Virus genome (UHGV): UHGV-1377012
DNA length: 39,435 nt
Strand: one strand, 5' to 3'
From: a virus
The stretch's first letter is position 1. Each line of letters starts with the position of its first letter. The notes under the pieces were generated by a model that searched no databases, had not been told where the DNA came from, and worked only from the letters and a program-made list of their open reading frames with translations. A program made the position numbers and the translations under genes. Positions 2,067-33,493 of this stretch are shown in pieces.

Positions 2067-3443
2067 CTAAATTTCTATCTCAAACGGAAGGCAATAATTC
2101 AGCATGCAATTGTCTGCATGATAGCGATCTTTAAAATGATTTGGGAATTCATCACTATCGCAAAGCTCTCCTATCCGTGACTCTTTAAGATAACTCACCG
2201 TACCTTTAAGGCCGGAAGTATTGATGCTCACAGTATCATCTGAAATGATCTTAACGTCGCTAGCAGATAGTTTTTTTCCTGTGAAATGAAAACCCATAGG
2301 ACAACCATCTTTTATAAATGAATACATTCCGTTGAGGGTTTTTCTAAATTGCAATGGCTTCACAGGAATATTAAATTTTATAATAATGCTGTTACCATCG
2401 ATAGAATGTGATTTATAACATAGAGGTGACCATGATGAACCTGACAACTTACTAGTTAAATACGCCTGTGCCATTTTTTCGCCATGTGCACGCTGGGCAT
2501 GTGGGTACATATGAATTTCGTTCGTCAGGTGATATCTTGGGCCAGAGATGTACATCTTAATGCCGGAATGTTTTGCTTCATCATGGGCCATGCGTTGCTC
2601 GACGTTAAGACCAAAGTGTGAGTTTATCCTTCTACCTTCGGTTTTAAAACCATGCCAACAGTAATTGCTTTGCTCAAAAATAAACTCTGGCTCTTTGCCC
2701 TGCCCTGTGATTTTTACAATATCTTTAACGTAATCATTTCTGAATGATAGAAGTTTTTCAGAATATCCTTTAGGGGCGATGGCATCATTTTCCCCCTGAA
2801 TCCAGAAGATGCCATCAACTTGAATATCACTTTTGATAATATCTTTTATTTTTTCGAGCATCCACATACCGTTCAGATAAGGGTAGCGGAATTTTGGCTC
2901 GCGATAATAAAGCAGTGATTTATTTCCTGATACTACATTGTAGTCAGAAGACTCTTTAGTTAGAGGTTTGTTATAGTTGTCACCATTAAGAATTAAATCT
3001 TTGCTAGGCTTAATAAGTTGCTCTATATACTGGGATCCCCTTCCGTGCCCGAAGATAATAAGATTGTCATTTGGAAACGCTTTTGAGATATGTGAAATTA
3101 TTCCGTATACAGGCCCTTCTCCTGCATCAATACCAAATGCCATTCTGTCTAAATTGGTTAAGCTTGCGCCGCCTGAGGACAAAGTAAATGCACTTGCCAA
3201 ATCAGTTGTGATGAATTTACTACCGTCTCTCTCACCCTCATATGATTCAAGATAAGAATCCCATGGGCTTGGTGTTCTCCATGTCTGTGAATAATCAACG
3301 GTTCCTGTTGAGTTGGATTGTCCGTAAATAATGAATACGCGGTTTTTCCTTCCAGCAACAAAATCTGCAAAAAGAAGACCAGATCCTGACAGCGCGCCGA
3401 TGGCCGCAGCTAATTTAATAAAATTTCTTCTGGAAACTGACAT
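2067..3443 (-). CDS. Secreted SGNH/SASA-family esterase (sialate O-acetylesterase-like), Tat signal peptide
   Basis: N-terminus MSVSRRNFIKLAAAIGALSGS is a twin-arginine signal; IIYGQSNSTG matches the GQSN catalytic block of SASA/SGNH esterases; visibly AT-rich; start moved to the ATG at 3443 with GAGGTG upstream. Confidence 0.65.
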   Translation of the reverse strand: MSVSRRNFIKLAAAIGALSGSGLLFADFVAGRKNRVFIIYGQSNSTGTVDYSQTWRTPSPWDSYLESYEGERDGSKFITTDLASAFTLSSGGASLTNLDRMAFGIDAGEGPVYGIISHISKAFPNDNLIIFGHGRGSQYIEQLIKPSKDLILNGDNYNKPLTKESSDYNVVSGNKSLLYYREPKFRYPYLNGMWMLEKIKDIIKSDIQVDGIFWIQGENDAIAPKGYSEKLLSFRNDYVKDIVKITGQGKEPEFIFEQSNYCWHGFKTEGRRINSHFGLNVEQRMAHDEAKHSGIKMYISGPRYHLTNEIHMYPHAQRAHGEKMAQAYLTSKLSGSSWSPLCYKSHSIDGNSIIIKFNIPVKPLQFRKTLNGMYSFIKDGCPMGFHFTGKKLSASDVKIISDDTVSINTSGLKGTVSYLKESRIGELCDSDEFPNHFKDRYHADNCMLNYCLPFEIEI

Positions 3444-3482
3444 AAACACCTCAAAAACGTCCTTGTTAATGAGGATATCACA

Positions 3483-5834
3483 TTAGAGATTTCCTGTTGA
3501 CTGCCAAGTGCCAGGAGTGCCGGCGGTAACACATACCCACTCCTTAGGGCTCCCGACAGCAGGAGAGGAATTTATGCATCGCGATCCCCTTGGCCAGGTC
3601 AAAGTGGTTGGAGCGGCGGTATCGTAAAGCACAGGGAGAGATGACCCTTGTTTCACCAAACTTCCAAGCCACGCTGGAACTGTTGGCACATCCCAACGAC
3701 AGCCAGAGTGGAAGAACGCTCCAACACCATCTCCGTACATTCTGATTGCGTCTCCAGTTGTATTTGTGCTGTGACAATCGATAAGGATTAGTGGTTCATT
3801 GTTCCATGAAACGTTTCTGAAGAAACCGTTGAACCTAACTCCTTCAAGTTTCGTAGCGGAGGTTACAGTGAATGCTATATCAGATGTGCCTGCGCCAATG
3901 TGGCTAAAGTTACAATTTTCAAATGTCAGATATCCGGTGGTTCCACCTGTACCTGTCATAACAACGCCACAAGAAGCAGAGCAATTTCTTACGGTAGTAT
4001 TATTGGCAGTGTTACCGAAAGCAGCAGATACGTTAGAAATGCTGACGTTTTCAACTGTGATATTGTCGCCATTGCTACAATGGATCGCCGTTGAATCGTA
4101 AATGTCACCATATTTTGTTATACTTCCTCCATTGAAATGGCAGCGAGTTCCTTGCAAAGAAATCATATAGCTTCCGCTAAATGACTGGCTCCATCTATGG
4201 ATATGGCAATTACTCAACTCAACGTTAAGTAGTGTTCCTGCATCATTGTAAATGTAGATGTCTATTTTTTTGTTATCGCCAGCCAGATGGTCGAAAATGT
4301 GGATGTAACGTGTAGTGGCATCATCTCCAGATTGTGAATACACACGAATGCCGTACTCGCTATTTCCGAATGTTTGATTTCCTTTAAAGGTTGTACCAGT
4401 GCTCTTCCAGGCAATACATCCTCTGCCGCCATCAGATATTTCTGTATCACTCAGATAACCATTATAGTTACCGACAGAATTGATAATTTCATTGAATGTC
4501 CCGTAACGGTCTTCAAGACCCATACCCCAGTTATTTTCAGAAATGCAATCCTGAATTTTACAACGTGTGCAATTGATCATCTGAATACCAGAGCCAGGGA
4601 CCCTTCTTACTGTCATTCCTTTAACAGAACTATAAGAGGTATCAGCAACTAATACCGCAGACACTACACTGTTTGCTCCAGCCCTGACACCTGTGCCAAC
4701 TATAAAACCACCTGAGGTATGTGTATTAGCCCCCCTTATCGCCAATATATAATTTGCCAGCGAAGTACCCTGGATTAACCTTGATGATCCAAAGTCTACA
4801 GACCTACCTGCTTGCAATGTTATAGTGGCATCAAGAAGATAATCACCACCTGTAAACTGCATTCTCTTGCCAACAGCAAACATGGCGTTAATTGCTGCTG
4901 AGCACGGGGTAACTCCATCAGGCACTGCGCCAGCCATTAATGGGTTAATGATATCAGCATTAACACGAATCCATGCCGCTCCACCAGGAGTCTTGAATAC
5001 GGTAACGCCGTTGTCTGTATATGCACTTCCATCAAGCACTGCGCGAAGCTGGCCACCACCGTAACCTGTGCCAGAGGTATATTCTTTCAGGAGCACCCGC
5101 TGACCATCGGAAGCTGGCTCCGTTGCACGGAGAACTGTGACGTTAGGGAATTGCCCTATCAATTTGAAGCCGTCACTTTTTGCCAGCTCCATCAGAACTT
5201 CAGATGCGGAAGCTGATGGCGGGAGAACGACAATTGCATTACCCATGCTATCAAACGCGGGCATTTTGTTTGCCCTGTCAACTGCTGATGGTAGCTGATT
5301 GATTGGCTCTGGTACGCGCAGAGTACGCATCAGGTTGCCACTGGACAGCGTATCAACATAATTCTTGGTAGCTGCATCCTGAGGGTCCCGTGGGTCGCGG
5401 AGATTGCGAATATAGTTGTTCAGCGCATCGTACCAGTTCGCGATGCTTGATGGTTTACGCAGCGCCAGGCGGAACACGCTGAATGCCTGTTGGATCAGCA
5501 TCGTCAGCTTATCGAATGCGTCCTCATGCACCTCTGCGAAGAACTTACCCTGGTTGCGCAGATCGGTATCCTGCGTAACCGGTAGCTCTCTTGATATAGA
5601 AATCTGATAACCGTTAACCAACGCCTTCGACAGAATTACATTGCCGCCGTTATACCCTCCCGCACCAGTGACTATGTAATCAGTATCAAGAGCCAGCACA
5701 GCGATATTTTCGTCAAGGTCAACCACCTGCACTACCAGATCAGATTCATTGAAAACCCTAAAGGTATAAGGGAATGAAGTCGTAACGCCATTGCCTGTGT
5801 ATTCGTTGTGGTCAACTTCGGTTGAGACCGTCAT
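3483..5834 (-). CDS. Tailspike / receptor-binding protein with probable beta-helix depolymerase domain
   Basis: 783 aa; N-terminal roughly 150 aa look like a virion-attachment domain, the remainder is rich in Gly/Asn/Ser/Thr repeats typical of right-handed beta-helix tailspikes; last structural gene before the cargo and lysis genes. Confidence 0.7.
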   Translation of the reverse strand: MTVSTEVDHNEYTGNGVTTSFPYTFRVFNESDLVVQVVDLDENIAVLALDTDYIVTGAGGYNGGNVILSKALVNGYQISISRELPVTQDTDLRNQGKFFAEVHEDAFDKLTMLIQQAFSVFRLALRKPSSIANWYDALNNYIRNLRDPRDPQDAATKNYVDTLSSGNLMRTLRVPEPINQLPSAVDRANKMPAFDSMGNAIVVLPPSASASEVLMELAKSDGFKLIGQFPNVTVLRATEPASDGQRVLLKEYTSGTGYGGGQLRAVLDGSAYTDNGVTVFKTPGGAAWIRVNADIINPLMAGAVPDGVTPCSAAINAMFAVGKRMQFTGGDYLLDATITLQAGRSVDFGSSRLIQGTSLANYILAIRGANTHTSGGFIVGTGVRAGANSVVSAVLVADTSYSSVKGMTVRRVPGSGIQMINCTRCKIQDCISENNWGMGLEDRYGTFNEIINSVGNYNGYLSDTEISDGGRGCIAWKSTGTTFKGNQTFGNSEYGIRVYSQSGDDATTRYIHIFDHLAGDNKKIDIYIYNDAGTLLNVELSNCHIHRWSQSFSGSYMISLQGTRCHFNGGSITKYGDIYDSTAIHCSNGDNITVENVSISNVSAAFGNTANNTTVRNCSASCGVVMTGTGGTTGYLTFENCNFSHIGAGTSDIAFTVTSATKLEGVRFNGFFRNVSWNNEPLILIDCHSTNTTGDAIRMYGDGVGAFFHSGCRWDVPTVPAWLGSLVKQGSSLPVLYDTAAPTTLTWPRGSRCINSSPAVGSPKEWVCVTAGTPGTWQSTGNL

Positions 5835-20599: not shown

Positions 20600-20892
20600 T
20601 CCTGTTCACTGGCCTCTTTGGCCATCTTCAAATACTGTTCAGGGCAATGCGCCATAACGCGCTGAAACAGTTCCAGCGCCAGATTGCGTTGCCCCTCATT
20701 AAATGCCATTGCCATAGCGTCCATCGGTGAGATAGCGGAAAACACACGGCCTTTCTCTAGCACCGACCAGACAACGCGACGCCCCTGTTCACTGCTCATG
20801 ACAAAGCGAATGTCATCAATTTCACGCTGTGCCATGTCACGTTGCTTACGGGCGTTTTCTTCTTTCAGTTGATCGTCTTCGTAATCTGTCAT
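20596..20892 (-). CDS. Hypothetical head-assembly protein
   Basis: 98 aa acidic ORF overlapping portal and scaffold genes by 4 nt each. Confidence 0.45.
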   Translation of the reverse strand: MTDYEDDQLKEENARKQRDMAQREIDDIRFVMSSEQGRRVVWSVLEKGRVFSAISPMDAMAMAFNEGQRNLALELFQRVMAHCPEQYLKMAKEASEQE

Positions 20893-22568
20893 TGTGATTG
20901 CCCACCCTGACCACTAACTGCATTCGCCATAGCTGACAAAACACTCGGATCCGAAGTTTTAGCTTCGCTTAGCGTCTTGGCACCCTGTGCCGCCGCCATC
21001 CCCATCGCCATCATTTGTTGCTGCTGTTGCTGCTGTGCCCGTTGCTGGCGAGCCTGCTCAACCTGTTCCTGCGGAACAATAACGGTTGGAGACACTCCGG
21101 ACATATCAGCGAATGCATCGATCGCCTGATCAACGTTGAGTTTGTCGAGAGCTTCTGGTTTCGCTTGCGCAAGTTGACCAATGAAGTTAACCGTGGACGC
21201 CAGACTGGACAGGCCGATAGACTTCTGCGCCTGAGCCATGACGGAAATGTATTCGACCTTCAGGGGCATGCCTTCCATCGCGTCAGGCGGTGGCGGCAGC
21301 ATGTTTTTACGCACCATCATCGAGAAAGCGCGGTCAATGAGAGGATTAAGACATTCGTCGTTCAGACGCTCCAGAACCGGCCCCAACATCAGAAGTTTTT
21401 CTTCTTTCATTTCGATCACCGCTTCAACAGGCATCGAGCGGGTATTGATGTTCTGCAACATCATGAACAGATCGACAAAGTAGGCGCTGTTAATGATTTG
21501 ACGAGTGTCCTGAATGTCTGCCACCAAATCTGCTGTACTGGGGTTAACCAGATAAGCAGGCCTGAAGCCATCCTGACCAGTAATCTGATCGATATACGTG
21601 ATGTCGCCAGGAAGAAGGGAGGCGCGCTGATTCTTGAGGGAAGTCGGAGCAACCATCGGCGGATTGGTGGCTTTATCAATCAACTGCGACTTGCGCTTCT
21701 GGAGAAGCTGCAATGCCTTAACAGGTCCAAGCGCCAGCATGCCCGGGCATGATGATCCATAAACATCTTCACCGTTAACTTCCCAGCGCGGAGCCATAAT
21801 TGGAAACTCATCGAATCCGGACTCACGCAACAACTTGTCGTTATCGCCACCAACCTCGTAATAAACCGATTTGAATGGCTTGTTCTTGCTATCCAGCTTC
21901 GATGTATCGCGGTCAATGTTCGGGTAAACCGAATGCATCACGTCAATCCACTTCTCGTAGGTGCCGCTTTCCCACATGCTTTTTACGGATTCGCTGACGT
22001 TATTTAGCCCGAACTCCTGAACAAGCTGACGAACAGTCATAGAGAACTTGCGAAAACAGGTGTCAACACTGCCACGAGGTGAGTTAGCCAGGTAGTAACT
22101 GCCTATCGGGAATGGCATTGTGCGAATGATGTCCTCATCATCCTCCAGTACCGCCATTGCACCGGTGCTGTATGTGCCGAGGCTTCCGTATAACTGCGGC
22201 AGCGACTGGTAGAGATTCGACTTATTGAACATATCGTTCATGCGGTTCTGCACCGCCTCAAGCCACAACTTAACAGGGCCATAATCCATCATTTCAGGAT
22301 CTGGCGTAGCCAGGCGAAACCACGGACGCGCGGGGCTTGTGATGCCTGACATCATGCCGCTGGCGAGAGTGCGCGCCGCCATAGTCCCGGTCGAATCAAT
22401 AATGCGTGTATTGCGTCGATCGTTACGGTTGACCTCAGAAGTCAGAAAGCGGGAACCACGCGGGTTGATGTAATCACTCAACTCGCGCCAGTGCGGCTCG
22501 AACGACTGACGCTCGCTTTCAAGTTGTGCGAACTGTTTGTTCAATCGCTCTTTAGTTGTTTCCGCCAT
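20889..22568 (-). CDS. Portal (head-to-tail connector) protein, T7 gp8-like
   Basis: 559 aa; C-terminal Gln/Ala/Met-rich tail (QQRAQQQQQQQMMAMGMAAAQG) resembles the T7 connector C-terminus; position between terminase and scaffold. Confidence 0.8.
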   Translation of the reverse strand: MAETTKERLNKQFAQLESERQSFEPHWRELSDYINPRGSRFLTSEVNRNDRRNTRIIDSTGTMAARTLASGMMSGITSPARPWFRLATPDPEMMDYGPVKLWLEAVQNRMNDMFNKSNLYQSLPQLYGSLGTYSTGAMAVLEDDEDIIRTMPFPIGSYYLANSPRGSVDTCFRKFSMTVRQLVQEFGLNNVSESVKSMWESGTYEKWIDVMHSVYPNIDRDTSKLDSKNKPFKSVYYEVGGDNDKLLRESGFDEFPIMAPRWEVNGEDVYGSSCPGMLALGPVKALQLLQKRKSQLIDKATNPPMVAPTSLKNQRASLLPGDITYIDQITGQDGFRPAYLVNPSTADLVADIQDTRQIINSAYFVDLFMMLQNINTRSMPVEAVIEMKEEKLLMLGPVLERLNDECLNPLIDRAFSMMVRKNMLPPPPDAMEGMPLKVEYISVMAQAQKSIGLSSLASTVNFIGQLAQAKPEALDKLNVDQAIDAFADMSGVSPTVIVPQEQVEQARQQRAQQQQQQQMMAMGMAAAQGAKTLSEAKTSDPSVLSAMANAVSGQGGQSQ

Positions 22569-22582
22569 TTCAATGACTCCGG

Positions 22583-22789
22583 TTACTGACCAAGTAGCGT
22601 TTTACCGCTGGTATTAGCGGTTGATGTGTCGCCCTGAGAACCGGTAAGCAGCGTAGAACTACGACCAGCAGCAGCGCGACGGCGACGAGTTTCTTCGTCG
22701 CGGGCATCAACAACGGCGGCATCCTGCTCCTGTGGTGCTGCCTGAACTTCTGGTGTTGCAGGCACTGATGGTGAGCTACCCATGCACAT
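22583..22789 (-). CDS. Small hypothetical protein upstream of portal
   Basis: 68 aa ATG-initiated ORF; preferred over the overlapping TTG-initiated ORF 22570..22809; low-complexity sequence. Confidence 0.3.
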   Translation of the reverse strand: MCMGSSPSVPATPEVQAAPQEQDAAVVDARDEETRRRRAAAGRSSTLLTGSQGDTSTANTSGKTLLGQ

Positions 22790-22857: not shown

Positions 22858-22894
22858 TTGACATTTAACGCACGAATTATTACCTTTCAGGTAA
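22858..22894 (+). promoter_or_regulatory. Promoter-like TTGACA followed 16 bp later by perfect palindrome TTACC-TTTCA-GGTAA
   Basis: TTGACA at 22858..22863, palindrome at 22880..22894; CCACATATG at 22830..22838; faces the tRNA-Arg gene. Confidence 0.5.
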
Positions 22895-23217
22895 CCAAAA
22901 AGTTCATTCCGGTTACTAACCTGACTGGCTTGTCGTTAAATTGAACAGGTGGAGTGAGCTTTTATTTTGAGCAGTACGGCGTATGGCACATGCGTCGTTA
23001 GCGGTCTGGTGACGTTAAAGGGGTTACCTTTTCCCCTAGCTCAGGCAACAAACCAGGTAGCCGGAATGTGCAAGCCCCGTTCATATCGTCGGACCGAGGA
23101 CTCACCATCCTGGCGATTCGGTGTGACGCCTCGGAAGAGACGAGGGTACAACGATGAGAGCATTTATGGAGCCGCGACAAAGTGTGGCGCCTTAACAGGC
23201 TAAGTGCTCTCAGCGTT

Positions 23218-23294
23218 GTGGCATTAGCTCAGCTGGACAGAGCAACCGCCTTCTAAGCGGTTGGTCGCAGGTTCGAATCCTGCATGCCACGCCA
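23218..23294 (+). tRNA. tRNA-Arg (anticodon TCT, reads AGA)
   Basis: 77-nt cloverleaf: acceptor GTGGCAT/ATGCCAC, D-stem GCTC/GAGC, anticodon stem ACCGC/GCGGT with loop CTTCTAA, T-arm GCAGG-TTCGAAT-CCTGC, discriminator G and encoded CCA. Confidence 0.9.
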
Positions 23295-23337
23295 GAATCA
23301 CGCCTAAGGACCGTGATGCCAGAAGTTCCAGGGGCTT

Positions 23338-23379
23338 GGCGGTGATGGTTTCCCTTGAAGGACTATCACCGCCCTTTTT
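23338..23379 (+). terminator. Hairpin GGCGGTGAT...ATCACCGCC followed by CTTTTT
   Basis: 9-bp stem with a large loop and a T5 run, 44 bp downstream of the tRNA. Confidence 0.45.
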
Positions 23380-23457
23380 ACAGCAGGACGCCATTGCGAT
23401 GACTTCATGCTGTAAACCAGTACAGCCACGGAAGGCATAACTCATTGCTTCCAGTTC

Positions 23458-23481
23458 GCCCACTTCAGTGGGCTTTTTTTT
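23458..23481 (+). terminator. Rho-independent terminator GCCCAC-TTCA-GTGGGC followed by T8
   Basis: 6-bp GC stem, tetraloop and eight T's. Confidence 0.7.
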
Positions 23482-23495
23482 CTAGTGACTACTGA

Positions 23496-23510
23496 TTACC
23501 TTATGGGTAA
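23496..23510. promoter_or_regulatory. Perfect palindrome TTACC-TTATG-GGTAA, candidate operator
   Basis: 33 bp upstream of the ATG at 23543, directly after the terminator. Confidence 0.55.
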
Positions 23511-23542: not shown

Positions 23543-24433
23543 ATGCTTGACTTCATCCGTGACATTTACTCCTCTTTCCGCCAAGCATCTCTTGAGCGAG
23601 TGAAAAGCCCGTTCCTTGGGGCATTTGTTTTTTCCTGGCTTTGCTTTAATTGGCAGATGTTAGCAATTCTATTTTTTAGTTCTAAGGATATTGAAAAGCG
23701 CCTTGCTATTATTAATGGCTCTTTCGGCATCGTCAGCTTTTTAATTGCGCCAATATGCACTACAGCATTGATAGTTATCCTTTTACCGCAAATTAATAAA
23801 TTGATTACAATAATACAAGATAAACCTAACTCAGACACAATTGAAATGAGCCTTGCATCTAAAATAAAGATCGCCGAACTGCAGCAACTATTAGCAGAAA
23901 ATGAAGCAAGAAAGAAACTTGCTGATAAAAAAGAAGAACGCTTCATTGAAGAGAATATTATTTCAATAAAAAAAGACCATGAAAAAGCAATAGATAACCT
24001 TAAAGACAAAGAAAGTAAAATCTCAAATCTCACGGACACAATAACTGAACTTCAGAGCAAACTGGTTAAAGCTGAGGCCACTCTCAAAGTTGAACAGGAG
24101 TCAAGATCCCAAGTGCAGAATGAATTGATTATTGAAAAAGAGAACAAGCGGAAATTAGAAGACAACATTCTGCACCTTAATTTAAGTTTAAAAAAAAACC
24201 AATCAGAATTGGCCATTGCAAAAGAAGCCTATGATAATACCTTGATGGCTTATAATGAACTTAACACAACATTAAAAAAAGCAGAAAGCTCAATAATAAA
24301 CTTCAATGCTAACTTTCCTTTTTTAACTGACATAAATAACAGCACCCCAAATACATACTTAAAAATAAATAAAAATGCATGGGAGCATTTAGTTAGTTTA
24401 AATTTAAGTCTAAAGGAAAAAATACAAAAATAA
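23543..24433 (+). CDS. AT-rich membrane-anchored coiled-coil protein (cargo gene, function unknown)
   Basis: 296 aa; two N-terminal hydrophobic helices followed by about 200 aa of Lys/Glu/Leu-rich heptad-like sequence; very AT-rich; opposite strand to the flanking terminase and portal genes. Confidence 0.7.
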   Translation: MLDFIRDIYSSFRQASLERVKSPFLGAFVFSWLCFNWQMLAILFFSSKDIEKRLAIINGSFGIVSFLIAPICTTALIVILLPQINKLITIIQDKPNSDTIEMSLASKIKIAELQQLLAENEARKKLADKKEERFIEENIISIKKDHEKAIDNLKDKESKISNLTDTITELQSKLVKAEATLKVEQESRSQVQNELIIEKENKRKLEDNILHLNLSLKKNQSELAIAKEAYDNTLMAYNELNTTLKKAESSIINFNANFPFLTDINNSTPNTYLKINKNAWEHLVSLNLSLKEKIQK

Positions 24434-24456: not shown

Positions 24457-25926
24457 TTACTCATACGGGTCATAATCTATTATAGCCTTACCCTGCAGCT
24501 GGCGCGGATCATTAAGTTTTTTTGTGACCGGAAAAGCAAACGTCAGCAGTAGCGCATCGCCTTTACCCGGCGAACGCCCAAGCCGCTCCTTGATATCTTC
24601 CTTCGGTTCGATAACGATTTTACCGTCCACGCGAACTTTGTACTCTGCCGCCGACAGATCGTCCGCTGTTTCCTGGTCATCCAGCATCCCGCCCAACCTC
24701 AGCCATGTCTTGCATGAGTTGAACATCTCCCCGCGCTTGTTGAGCATCTGAGGGTCAGTTGACGCACCACCAAACGGAACAAGTTGCCATGTACGTCCCC
24801 AGCCATCACCGATTGACTTCAAACCGGTTCCGTAACCGAAGTCGATGAATACCGCGTCAGCCTGATACTGGTCTTCAAAGTCAGCGATGCGCTTCGCCAT
24901 AATCAGATCGTCGGTGGTCTTGTTGCCAGTCCATAGCACCTTACTATGCAACCCCTGCCGCAGGTATATCACCGCGTCATCAACACCTGAATATGCCGGG
25001 TCAACACCGATTATCACCGGTGCATGTGCCACCTGCGCAGCAGTTACCACCCGTTTCATTGCCTCGTCAGTAAGACCGGTAGGGATAAACTGCAATTCAG
25101 ATGCATCAGGGAATATGCCGCGCACACGGATTTTAACGAAGTCGCTGTCTTCCCCGTAGTCATCAACCCATTTCTGCAATTGCTGCTTGTTAGTACCTTC
25201 CACCGTCCGGCTGTCAATCTGCGCAGTTTTCCAGCGGTGTTTATATTTGCGGAAACATTCACGGAAACGTCCGGTATTACGCGTCGGGTTTCCGAACGCC
25301 ACCCAGATAATCTCAGTGTCTTCGTCCGTAAGCGCACCCTCAGCAACTTCCCACACCAGATCCGCAATGTTCGACGCTTCATCGAATACCACGATGATGC
25401 GTTTGCGCTCGTTGTGTAGTCCGGCGAATGCCTCAGTGTTGTGCTCAGACCAGGGGATTGCGTCAGCTCGCCACCGCTTGTCGTGCCCAGGATCATTGCT
25501 GTACATCGCAGTAGCGGTACAGGTAAACCAGTCTTTCGTGATAGCAAGGTTCGACCACTTGATAATTTCCGGCCAGGTCTTCGTTCGTAGCTGGTTGTCG
25601 GTGTTGGCGGTCACCACGACCTTACAATCCTCGCAAGTGGACATGCCCCAGTTGATCAGCATTGAGATGAGTGCTGATTTACCAATACCGTGACCCGAAG
25701 CACGTGCCAGCATAAGCGGCTGATAGCGCGTCTCGGGATTCTGCAGGTGATCACGTATCTCTCGGAACGCATCGGCCTGCCACTGACGTGGGCCGGAAGC
25801 ATGTGCCAGTTCAGTCCCCTCTTCCCCCCACGGGAACGCATAGAGGGCATAGCCAAGCGGATCGTGAGTGAACCCTGCAATATCCTCGATCAACTGCTCT
25901 TCAGGAGATAACGCTGTATCTGTCAC
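24457..25926 (-). CDS. Terminase large subunit
   Basis: 489 aa; Walker A-like GHGIGKS near the N-terminus, acidic nuclease-like C-terminal half; overlaps the small terminase gene by 4 nt. Confidence 0.85.
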   Translation of the reverse strand: MTDTALSPEEQLIEDIAGFTHDPLGYALYAFPWGEEGTELAHASGPRQWQADAFREIRDHLQNPETRYQPLMLARASGHGIGKSALISMLINWGMSTCEDCKVVVTANTDNQLRTKTWPEIIKWSNLAITKDWFTCTATAMYSNDPGHDKRWRADAIPWSEHNTEAFAGLHNERKRIIVVFDEASNIADLVWEVAEGALTDEDTEIIWVAFGNPTRNTGRFRECFRKYKHRWKTAQIDSRTVEGTNKQQLQKWVDDYGEDSDFVKIRVRGIFPDASELQFIPTGLTDEAMKRVVTAAQVAHAPVIIGVDPAYSGVDDAVIYLRQGLHSKVLWTGNKTTDDLIMAKRIADFEDQYQADAVFIDFGYGTGLKSIGDGWGRTWQLVPFGGASTDPQMLNKRGEMFNSCKTWLRLGGMLDDQETADDLSAAEYKVRVDGKIVIEPKEDIKERLGRSPGKGDALLLTFAFPVTKKLNDPRQLQGKAIIDYDPYE

Positions 25927-30311: not shown

Positions 30312-30326
30312 TTACCTCTGAGGTAA
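30312..30326. promoter_or_regulatory. Perfect palindrome TTACC-TCTGA-GGTAA, candidate operator
   Basis: 4 bp upstream of the DUF1064 start; followed by an A-tract and CCACATAAG (30334..30342). Confidence 0.55.
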
Positions 30327-30373
30327 TTAAAAACCACATAAGACACGAAATCAATAGATTTTAGAATGTTTTA

Positions 30374-30388
30374 TTACCCAGCAGGTAA
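30374..30388. promoter_or_regulatory. Perfect palindrome TTACC-CAGCA-GGTAA, candidate operator
   Basis: Second copy 62 bp from the first, between the P-like stop and the DUF1064 start; a weak 4-bp hairpin plus A7/T7 tract (30401..30420) lies between it and the P stop. Confidence 0.55.
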
Positions 30389-32319: not shown

Positions 32320-32334
32320 TTACCTTTGAGGTAC
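32320..32334. promoter_or_regulatory. Palindrome TTACC-TTTGA-GGTAC (one mismatch), candidate operator
   Basis: Lies between the post-cro hairpin and the zinc-ribbon gene; adjacent to CCATATTTGG (32303..32312). Confidence 0.45.
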
Positions 32335-32348
32335 GAATAGATATGAAA

Positions 32349-32368
32349 AGACCGCCGGATGGCGGTCT
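32349..32368 (-). terminator. Hairpin AGACCGCC-GGAT-GGCGGTCT downstream of the Cro-like gene
   Basis: 8-bp GC-rich stem 21 bp after the cro-like stop; only a short U-tract on the minus strand, so intrinsic termination is uncertain. Confidence 0.35.
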
Positions 32369-32389
32369 ACAGAGGGTTGTGGCTGGATA

Positions 32390-32620
32390 TCATGAGTAGA
32401 AGAAGTATGCCAGTTCTGCTTTTGAGCGCAGCCATTGTCTTGTTTTACAGGCTTTAAAAAGCCCATTCATCAATACCTTACCTGGCATTTTGCGCTTACC
32501 TGTTAAGTGAGTCTGGATATAGTGACTCGTCGTTCCGGCTTCCTGTGCGAAGGCTTCACGCTCATCCGGAGTAAGTGCAAGCCAGTGCTTTTTGAAATCG
32601 AAATGTCCGTTATCGCTCAT
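32390..32620 (-). CDS. Cro-like HTH regulator
   Basis: 76 aa; GTTSHYIQTHLTGKRKMPGKV resembles the Cro/CI-type HTH; first gene of the rightward-equivalent early operon, divergent from the repressor-like gene. Confidence 0.65.
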   Translation of the reverse strand: MSDNGHFDFKKHWLALTPDEREAFAQEAGTTSHYIQTHLTGKRKMPGKVLMNGLFKACKTRQWLRSKAELAYFFYS

Positions 32621-32656
32621 AGCTATTGCCTGATATTTATTTCAGATAATAAATAT

Positions 32657-32719
32657 TCACCCATAAGGTAACAAAAATCAAGGATAGTTACCTATGGGGT
32701 GCATTTACCTGTTGGGTAA
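32657..32719. promoter_or_regulatory. Operator cluster (OR-equivalent): three TTACC-N5-GGTAA-type sites
   Basis: TCACC-CATAA-GGTAA (32657..32671), TTACC-TATGG-GGTGC (32688..32702) and perfect TTACC-TGTTG-GGTAA (32705..32719) in the 154-bp divergent intergenic region. Confidence 0.6.
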
Positions 32720-33416: not shown

Positions 33417-33493
33417 TTACCTTAAGGGTAATTTTTTTAACTCATATCTATTGACACCAAACCAAATACGCATAATCATTACCTCAACGGTAA
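33417..33493 (+). promoter_or_regulatory. OL-equivalent: two perfect palindromes flanking a TTGACA hexamer
   Basis: TTACC-TTAAG-GGTAA (33417..33431), TTGACA (33451..33456), TTACC-TCAAC-GGTAA (33479..33493), directly upstream of the early-left operon. Confidence 0.55.

Follow-up and report, generated by a model that had tools for sequence, protein, structure and literature searches.

A previously unrecognised family of structured phage RNAs, with a member ahead of a tRNA-Arg gene in an epsilon15-like temperate phage

The virus genome UHGV-1377012, of which the whole stretch of 39,435 nucleotides (nt) that was analysed is called the window here, is that of an epsilon15/phiV10-like temperate phage (Uetakevirus), and between a small open reading frame (ORF) and the large terminase gene it carries an insert on the opposite strand, whose first 323 nt (positions 22895-23217) stand in front of a tRNA-Arg gene. 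An earlier note, made from the sequence alone, had taken these 323 nt as apparently non-coding and had suggested a long tRNA leader, a small RNA or a remnant of captured host DNA. We found that positions 22976-23221 are one copy of a structured RNA family which is widespread and was previously unrecognised. The element is a folded RNA, neither a protein gene nor a DNA site, and its fold consists of helices P1, P2, P5 and P6, a pseudoknot formed by the P5 loop, an optional helix P7 and an invariant junction of 19 nt. Among the three suggestions the small RNA is best supported and was right in kind, the RNA being conserved, covarying, pseudoknotted, about 245 nt long and without an Rfam match. 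As to its role we propose, at a probability of roughly 0.45, that it belongs to an undescribed family of phage RNAs which are expressed early, are released from their transcript and act in trans on a host or phage factor.

Fold and covariation of the element

Homologues were gathered with exact patterns and BLAST, and 44 representatives with a mutual identity below 95.5% were brought into one alignment (A1), in which conserved blocks are split by two length-variable regions. The structure that was tested was written by hand and contains 27 pairs, in helices P1, P2, P5 and P6 and the pseudoknot (Table 1). Standard pairs filled 94.9% of the 1177 cells, against 28-55% when the 3' partners were slid by 1-3 columns; both-sided (compensatory) changes were present in 13 of the 27 pairs, in 99 cells, and not one of 500 shuffles matched the observed pairing or covariation score. 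Thus, pair 8/20 of helix P1 is A-U in 26 sequences and G-C in 17, 33 sequences have C-G and 11 have U-A at pair 34/92 of helix P2, and a C-G pair of the pseudoknot becomes A-U in mEp460-type sequences. The + strand is the folded one, since G.U cells numbered 149 and A.C cells 6; folding of the other strand would lower the pairing to 82.8%. It is also the strand of the tRNA and of the upstream promoter. The predicted fold energy of the 323 nt on the + strand was -123.6 kcal/mol (z = -4.0), against z = -2.4 for the - strand. P7 was paired in 82.2% of its cells, against 29-61% in slid controls, with a moderate covariation that is weaker than in the other helices, and it is absent from the copy in phage P1, which keeps the core.

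The junction block at 23056-23074 was identical in 130 of the 136 loci that were fetched through an independent 5' pattern, lying in another part of the element. Members of the family are about 170-245 nt long, the present one being about 245 nt, and most freedom in length is seen in the two variable regions, for which we tried and did not obtain a reliable alignment across the 44 representatives. The P3 region, enclosed by P2, measures 20-44 nt with no multiple-of-3 pattern and holds, in a hairpin at 23019-23037, the inverted repeat AGGGG-N9-CCCCT to which the earlier note had drawn attention; the repeat is real, although its coordinates had been slightly off (AGGGG occupies 23019-23023 and, after 9 nt, CCCCT occupies 23033-23037).

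The non-coding character of 22895-23217 was confirmed, only short ORFs touching the stretch and none covering all of it, and so was its balanced composition (GC 0.52, against 0.49 for the whole window). A conserved coding frame, which according to the earlier note would speak against an RNA, was searched for in the alignment, and neither indels nor substitutions bore a codon signature: among the 44 representatives the lengths of the two variable regions fall into all three residue classes modulo 3 (20/13/11 and 25/11/8), and the variable columns at the three codon positions were 31/47, 35/50 and 31/47.

Table 1. Positions of the RNA element, its parts and the surrounding features in the window
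Feature	Position	Strand	Remarks
Portal gene	20889-22568	-	
Small ORF	22583-22789	-	
ORF, TTG start, 28 aa	22858-22944	+	
Promoter	22859-22887	+	-35 TTGACA 22859-22864 (perfect), 17-nt spacer, -10 TACCTT 22882-22887
Perfect 15-bp palindrome TTACCTTTCAGGTAA, putative repressor operator	22880-22894	.	overlaps -10
Lineage-specific 5' leader	22895-22975	+	phiV10/epsilon15 branch only
ORF, TTG start, 78 aa	22967-23203	+	
Conserved structured RNA element, helices P1 to P7	22976-23221	+	one copy of the structured RNA family
Helix P1 hairpin: CGGCGTATG, loop GCA, CATGCGTCG	22977-22985 with 22989-22997	+	9 pairs, 97.2% of cells paired
ORF, TTG start, 60 aa	22998-23180	-	
Helix P2	23005-23009 with 23053-23057	+	encloses variable P3 region
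ORF, ATG start, 40 aa	23041-23163	-	
Nearly invariant 19-nt junction block GGTAGCCGGAATGTGCAAG	23056-23074	+	
ORF, GTG start, 29 aa	23068-23157	+	
Variable P4 region	23075-23096	+	16-26 nt among the 44 representatives
Helix P5 hairpin	23097-23100 with 23108-23111	+	98.3% paired, 3 of 4 pairs compensatory
Pseudoknot, P5 loop CACC with GGTG	23103-23106 with 23120-23123	+	98.8% paired
Helix P6 hairpin: CCTCG, loop GAAGAGA, CGAGG	23129-23133 with 23141-23145	+	4 of 5 pairs compensatory; loop conserved
P7, long stem around variable insert	23147-23162 with 23205-23220	+	3' foot overlaps first 3 nt of tRNA
tRNA-Arg(TCT), encoded CCA, in the cargo slot	23218-23294	+	called by ARAGORN and by Rfam (71.7 bits)
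Small conserved hairpin AATCACGCCTAAGGACCGTGAT after cargo	23296-23317	+	same motif after non-tRNA cargos of loci L007, L068, L091, L140
Conserved terminator-like hairpin (module 2) ending CCGCCCTTTTTAC	23338-23381	+	
Strong intrinsic terminator, closes RNA-only unit	23458-23481	+	GCCCACTTCAGTGGGC then T8
Second operator copy	23496-23510	.	precedes ORF 23543-24433
Best palindrome copies	5939, 22880, 23496, 30312, 30374, 32320, 32705, 33417, 33479, 39234		
Large terminase	24457-25926	-	

Occurrence of the family

The earlier note had proposed to look at conservation among relatives and to search with covariance models, and both were done. The element is kept far beyond the phage's own lineage, with a covariation above all the controls. 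The whole 323 nt recur at about 90% identity in phiV10-like phages, while homology to lambdoid and P1-like phages begins at 22976: positions 22976-23217 are about 83% identical to the lambdoid phages cdtI, mEp460 and 2H10 and to a dozen Stx2c-converting phages, and positions 22976-23139 match the P1-like phages at 97% (D6) and 85% (P1, where the copy sits between trnI and ban). The lambdoid phage mEp390, of the subfamily Hendrixvirinae, also carries the element, and remoter copies were present in Salmonella, Klebsiella and Enterobacter phages and in one phage recorded as infecting Stenotrophomonas. In Klebsiella phage SopranoGao the copy follows the spanin gene, with no repressor or integrase gene within the stretch examined. 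Two independent exact-pattern scans of viral contigs gave at least 120 loci each. Among complete Escherichia coli genomes 1806 of 5426 contain the element, the places found being 1871 on chromosomes and 554 on plasmids, and 591 plasmid records contain it; no annotation lay under the matches in any of the listed records. A covariance model of the family scored 142 bits at 22974-23159 of the window. When one genome per species was scanned with a 15-mer, this model confirmed 5 of 120 among the matches listed, which were mostly chance matches, and the confirmed copies in that sample were all from Enterobacteriaceae (two species of Kosakonia, Phytobacter, Escherichia whittamii and Superficieibacter). 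Wherever the surroundings of a match were inspected they proved to be phage, prophage or P1-like plasmid sequence, and with only 1806 of 5426 genomes carrying the element the suggestion of a captured host DNA remnant is not supported; the CPS-53 prophage region, the stretch of K-12 that was searched, is without it. A pseudoknotted RNA with a 19-nt invariant core thus sits unannotated in a third of the complete E. coli genomes, as well as in the classic phage P1, the Stx2c-converting phages and the O157 typing phages, and a conserved player in early phage development would thus have been overlooked.

The covariance models of Rfam placed no known family on the element. With Rfam 15, including its tRNA-like, ribozyme, riboswitch, C4, GOLLD and ROOL models, the tRNA alone reached the gathering score in the window; at E<=10 there was nothing inside 22895-23217 and nothing on the element in 13 related loci. 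When the literature was searched by sequence, the conserved blocks turned up in no paper. GOLLD and ROOL RNAs measure roughly 580-800 nt, against about 245 nt for the element. They resemble it in being borne by phages and prophages, highly structured and often next to tRNA genes (PMC12286853), but they are not homologous to it (no Rfam match), and the element has been confirmed only in Enterobacteriaceae and their phages.

The association with tRNA genes was followed in 135 loci. In 29 of them a tRNA-Arg lies directly downstream, in 88 there is no tRNA within 700 nt, and in 18, all P1-like, a tRNA with a CAT anticodon (annotated tRNA-Ile in P1) ends about 15 nt upstream of the element instead. 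Since so many loci are free of a nearby tRNA, the element is an independent module; the description as a long tRNA leader is true in the present lineage, where the end of the element falls on the tRNA's first 3 nt, and fails for those 88 loci. One may still argue that the region has no function of its own and is an ordinary lineage-specific leader or spacer of a tRNA, or else a gene for a small protein, as the tRNA follows directly and a TTG ORF of 78 aa overlaps the region. This is scarcely credible, given the loci without tRNA, the conservation across three unrelated phage groups, the even spread of variable-region lengths modulo 3 and the want of a codon-position bias.

In E. coli 2012C-4502 (NZ_CP027440.1) the segment 1868887-1868919, annotated as CRISPR, is identical at 33 of 33 positions to 22992-23024 of the window, that is, from the 3' strand of helix P1 through P3; therefore at least one natural spacer targets the RNA gene.

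Transcription unit and exchangeable cargo

The promoter at 22859-22887 was not called by a strict consensus promoter scan. Its -35 and -10 hexamers, their spacing and the palindrome are kept in 24 distinct epsilon15-like upstream sequences, from Escherichia, Klebsiella and Salmonella phages, in which the spacer sequence varies. The 15-bp palindrome TTACCTNNNAGGTAA, with at most 2 mismatches, occurs at 16 sites (window 2047-39248), against 0.87 expected, and besides scattered copies it forms intergenic clusters at 30312-30388, 32320-32719 and 33417-33493; at the equivalent promoter of epsilon15 a repressor site is annotated in that phage's record. Judged by its over-representation, its position and the annotation in this one record, the palindrome is probably the operator of the phage repressor, and if that is true its sites would define the phage's whole repressor regulon. 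The leader that follows is dispensable, because SPN1S-type phages have the operator 43 nt before helix P1. Element and tRNA form an RNA-only unit, which appears to be under repressor control, because the terminators end the unit and the next ORF (23543-24433) has its own copy of the operator. The product of this ORF (+ strand, 296 aa) matches only PHROG families of unknown function (phrog_13369) and no Pfam domain; by eye its sequence resembles an N-terminal membrane segment and then a long coiled coil. Phage epsilon15 itself (1953-2052 of locus L005, equivalent to about 22929-23009 of the window) keeps only the portion with the leader and helix P1, neither core nor tRNA being present. At this place its record has a site of RNase III processing, on the opposite strand, that of the late mRNA; late transcription in these phages must pass in antisense direction across the entire RNA unit.

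The slot between the P7 foot (GTTGTGG) and the conserved terminator, which we call the cargo slot, holds at least nine unrelated classes of sequence, 90-390 nt long; 28 loci have tRNA-Arg there, 24 have a cdtI type and 15 have an mEp460 type. The terminator motif CCGC[CT]C..TTTTAC is present in 65 of 113 distinct contexts, both lambdoid and epsilon15-like, mostly 160-280 nt after P6. A reading of CGCTCTTTTTAC as a boxA was rejected, because the terminator stem explains its U/C variation. The arrangement suggests a modular cassette, with one constant RNA domain behind which tRNAs and small RNAs are exchanged among phages.

One such cargo has been described under another name. The small RNA sRNA-17, of 193 nt, was mapped by rapid amplification of cDNA ends (RACE) and northern blot in an mEp460-like prophage of E. 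coli K1 RS218, and was reported to be modulated by ArcA and to improve growth in blood when deleted (Sun et al. 2020, PMC7719688). We placed the published primers (supplementary Table S2, PMC7719688) on mEp460 (locus L002), where all of them match exactly. sRNA-17 then occupies 3237-3430 and the element about 2999-3240, so that their overlap is confined to the P7 foot: sRNA-17 has its 5' end inside the 3' foot of P7 (CGTTGTGG...), no more than 4 nt from where the tRNA of the window starts, and its 3' end is the conserved terminator hairpin, the module 2 of Table 1. The fragment used as the promoter, PsRNA-17 (2988-3237), is the mEp460 copy of the element. The amplicon of the published quantitative reverse transcription PCR (qRT-PCR) spans 2988-3383, with its forward primer at the 5' end of the element, and its signal therefore means that a transcript covers the whole element; from these primer positions, and not from a statement of the authors, we infer that element and sRNA-17 are co-transcribed. 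In the lambdoid relatives sRNA-17 belongs to the same transcription unit as the element, and its terminator is homologous to 23338-23381 of the window; sRNA-17 itself is the cargo, and its body has no counterpart in the window, where tRNA-Arg fills the slot and homology to sRNA-17 is restricted to the terminator part. A search of sRNA-17 against Rfam gave no match, and the paper contains no description of the element as an RNA and no structure for it (PMC7719688). This virulence-linked locus is to be reread accordingly: what had been assumed to be the promoter is itself a structured RNA under conservation, behind which sRNA-17 may be the cargo left by processing.

The published account of this locus treats the region as an ArcA-regulated promoter of the downstream RNA, and a gel shift of PsRNA-17 with phosphorylated ArcA was brought forward for it (PMC7719688). 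On this reading the stretch would act at the level of DNA and would not be a functional RNA. Such a DNA site leaves unexplained the 13 compensatory helix pairs and the asymmetry of 149 G.U to 6 A.C cells. The GTTA repeats which Sun et al. read as ArcA sites are missing in most family members, no promoter-like site was found when one was looked for inside the cdtI copy of the element, the qRT-PCR forward primer at the 5' end tells that the element is transcribed, and the element occurs without sRNA-17, e.g. in phage P1 and in this window. We hold this reading very improbable.

The fixed boundary between element and cargo, which lies at the P7 foot in at least nine cargo classes, and the close agreement of the two 5' ends, that of sRNA-17 and that of the tRNA, which differ by no more than 4 nt, could also be explained if the element were a cis-acting scaffold for maturation or stability, possibly a self-cleaving ribozyme, whose sole task would be to provide the cargo (tRNA-Arg, sRNA-17 or ban mRNA) with a set 5' end, the proper fold or protection; invariant junctions with a pseudoknot are typical of catalytic RNAs. 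On the other hand, RNase P alone suffices for the 5' end of a tRNA, no known ribozyme class in Rfam matches, 170-245 nt with 19 invariant bases far exceeds what a processing signal needs, and phage P1, without P7, still keeps the core. We regard a scaffold as decidedly unlikely.

The non-tRNA cargos, sRNA-17 and those of loci L001, L007, L064, L068, L091 and L140, start with GUGGUG and have a closing strand CACCAC, in some cases preceded by a hairpin that, judged by eye, resembles a T arm (GCAUG-UUCGAUU-CAUGC in L140). After the closing strand comes the hairpin AAUCACGCCUUAGGACCGUGAU, as it does after the real tRNA in the window (23296-23317). These cargos may be degenerate, tRNA-like handles for RNase P; as tRNAs they were called neither by ARAGORN, even at lowered thresholds, nor by Rfam. 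Protein genes follow the unit in other phages: the ORF directly after the element in D6 (3441-4016 of locus L006) has a Tad2-like (anti-Thoeris) domain, PF11195, and a DUF2829 protein follows the tRNA-Arg unit in Klebsiella phage ST512-KPC3phi13.3 (1953-2474 of locus L013). Counter-defence genes may be the cargo of this place behind the RNA unit.

Proposed action of the RNA and its main rival

The element is the first conserved part of an RNA-only unit made of a promoter with a putative operator, the element, the cargo, a small hairpin and one or more terminators. We expect such a unit to be largely silent in the lysogen and to come on early in lytic growth, as its promoter seems to be under the control of the phage repressor. 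We propose that a cut by RNase P at 23217/23218 would then release the element as a discrete, stable and highly structured RNA, because in this window it is followed at once by a tRNA, and elsewhere by another cargo beginning with GUGG. The freed RNA could act in trans, through its invariant single-stranded block and the pseudoknot, on a conserved factor of Enterobacteriaceae or of phages. An RNA that is cut out is favoured because the element stays constant while the cargo changes, because its 3' border is the 5' end of the tRNA here and the mapped 5' end of an RNA in mEp460, and because its 5' border in P1-like phages lies just after the 3' end of a tRNA. Stable RNAs that are co-transcribed with phage tRNAs and cut by RNase P have precedents in species 1 and 2 RNAs of T4, the c4 RNAs of P1 and P7 and the CI RNAs of P4. 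These resemble the present case in that a non-tRNA RNA is fused to phage tRNA genes and receives its ends from tRNA-processing enzymes; the c4-type RNAs differ in that the C4 model of Rfam matches elsewhere in cdtI and not on the element, and in that no antisense target was found in the window.

Several observations weigh against an early, released and trans-acting RNA. The alignment was collected by exact sequence patterns, which inflates the apparent invariance and was controlled only in part. No complement of the invariant block was found in the window besides the block itself. No protein gene was found to travel with the element across the loci; lacking such a partner gene, the RNA would be expected to act on a part of the host or on something that very different phages have in common. 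In phage P1 the element is without P7 and reads straight into ban, and in lambdoids it heads the early-left operon, both of which resemble a cis-acting leader. Finally, sRNA-17 was detected in an uninduced lysogen, a poor fit to a strictly repressed promoter (PMC7719688).

The lambdoid setting introduces the main rival, in which the element is a cis-acting processive antiterminator, a functional analogue of put in HK022 and putL in HK639: the nascent element would bind its own polymerase, which then passes the following terminators and transcribes the early operon. In cdtI the cI stop is followed by an intrinsic terminator, a near-consensus promoter (TTGACA-16-CATAAT) with the palindrome GATACATAATGTATC, about 45 nt and then the element, and on its 3' side by 173 nt of other sequence, the homologous terminator and a yfdP-like early-left operon. 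Of 132 loci, 58 have a cI-like repressor gene (helix-turn-helix and Peptidase_S24) directly upstream in the same orientation, which ends about 90-250 nt ahead of the approximate start of the element. We count this neighbourhood also in favour of the proposed repressor-controlled unit. The lambdoid element, about 45 nt downstream of the promoter beside cI, occupies the slot of nutL or putL, with a terminator between it and the first early-left gene, and the annotation of the yfdPQRS-type early-left operon names no N-type protein. In phage P1, the element stands inside a long operon, just before ban. Likewise mEp390 has it in the nutL/putL slot, and its subfamily, Hendrixvirinae, also contains HK022.

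The likeness to put (HK022 putL and putR, the putL-like site of HK639) is thus one of place, just downstream of the early-left promoter beside cI and ahead of terminators, and of kind, both being RNA elements of lambdoid phages that would need no protein; no N protein is annotated in the records examined. A position after an early promoter and before terminators was observed in cdtI, mEp460 and mEp390, and only formally in the window. The element differs in structure and range: put RNAs are about 70 nt long with two hairpins (PMC9378689), whereas the element has 170-245 nt, at least five helices and a pseudoknot, and occurs also in RNA-only units and in phage P1. It is not homologous to put, the covariance model, run with filters off, giving at most 5.2 bits over the HK639 immunity region, and the relatives of HK639 putL are a separate set of phages. 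A homology to HK639 putL was rejected, the shared 9-mer CATGCGTCG and 7-mer GGAAGAG being within chance by our estimate. Nor does the element look like a nut site, as no N-like gene is annotated in the early-left operons and no boxA precedes the P6 hairpin; the P6 loop GAAGAGA only resembles the boxB loop of lambda.

Further points stand against antitermination. The unit in the window consists of RNA only and is closed by two terminators. The ORF that follows is served by a separate operator and promoter, nothing behind the terminators lacks a promoter of its own, and there is nothing obvious for which read-through would be needed. The terminator travels with the element as a cassette, and the 3' end of sRNA-17 at this conserved terminator means that termination occurs, which argues against an efficient read-through (PMC7719688). 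Antitermination is, in our estimate, unlikely, and yet it is the alternative that deserves most attention.

The element may, though we hold this as doubtful, stand for a new functional class of phage RNA with its own mechanism, either a protein-independent reprogramming of host RNA polymerase, which would be a second, structurally unrelated solution to put-type antitermination, or a stable RNA that acts in trans and owes its 3' end to RNase P. In the latter case the RNA would be cut at a tRNA or a degenerate tRNA-like handle, an arrangement that we liken to eukaryotic MALAT1-mascRNA, and would neutralise a conserved host factor early in infection. The question can be tested with existing lysogens and reporters.

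Other RNAs were noticed in several of these phages. The ban operon of P1 (769-870 and 1326-2986 of locus L004) is unusually rich in RNA genes, with a dicF-like region, tRNA-Asn, tRNA-Thr, tRNA-Ile, the element and then ban. Searches with Rfam also brought out RNAs which the records do not annotate, namely a C4 antisense RNA and isrK in the antirepressor region of cdtI (777-965 of locus L001, - strand), and an int-alpA RNA just downstream of the unit in Tyrion (2708-2772 of locus L007, + strand).
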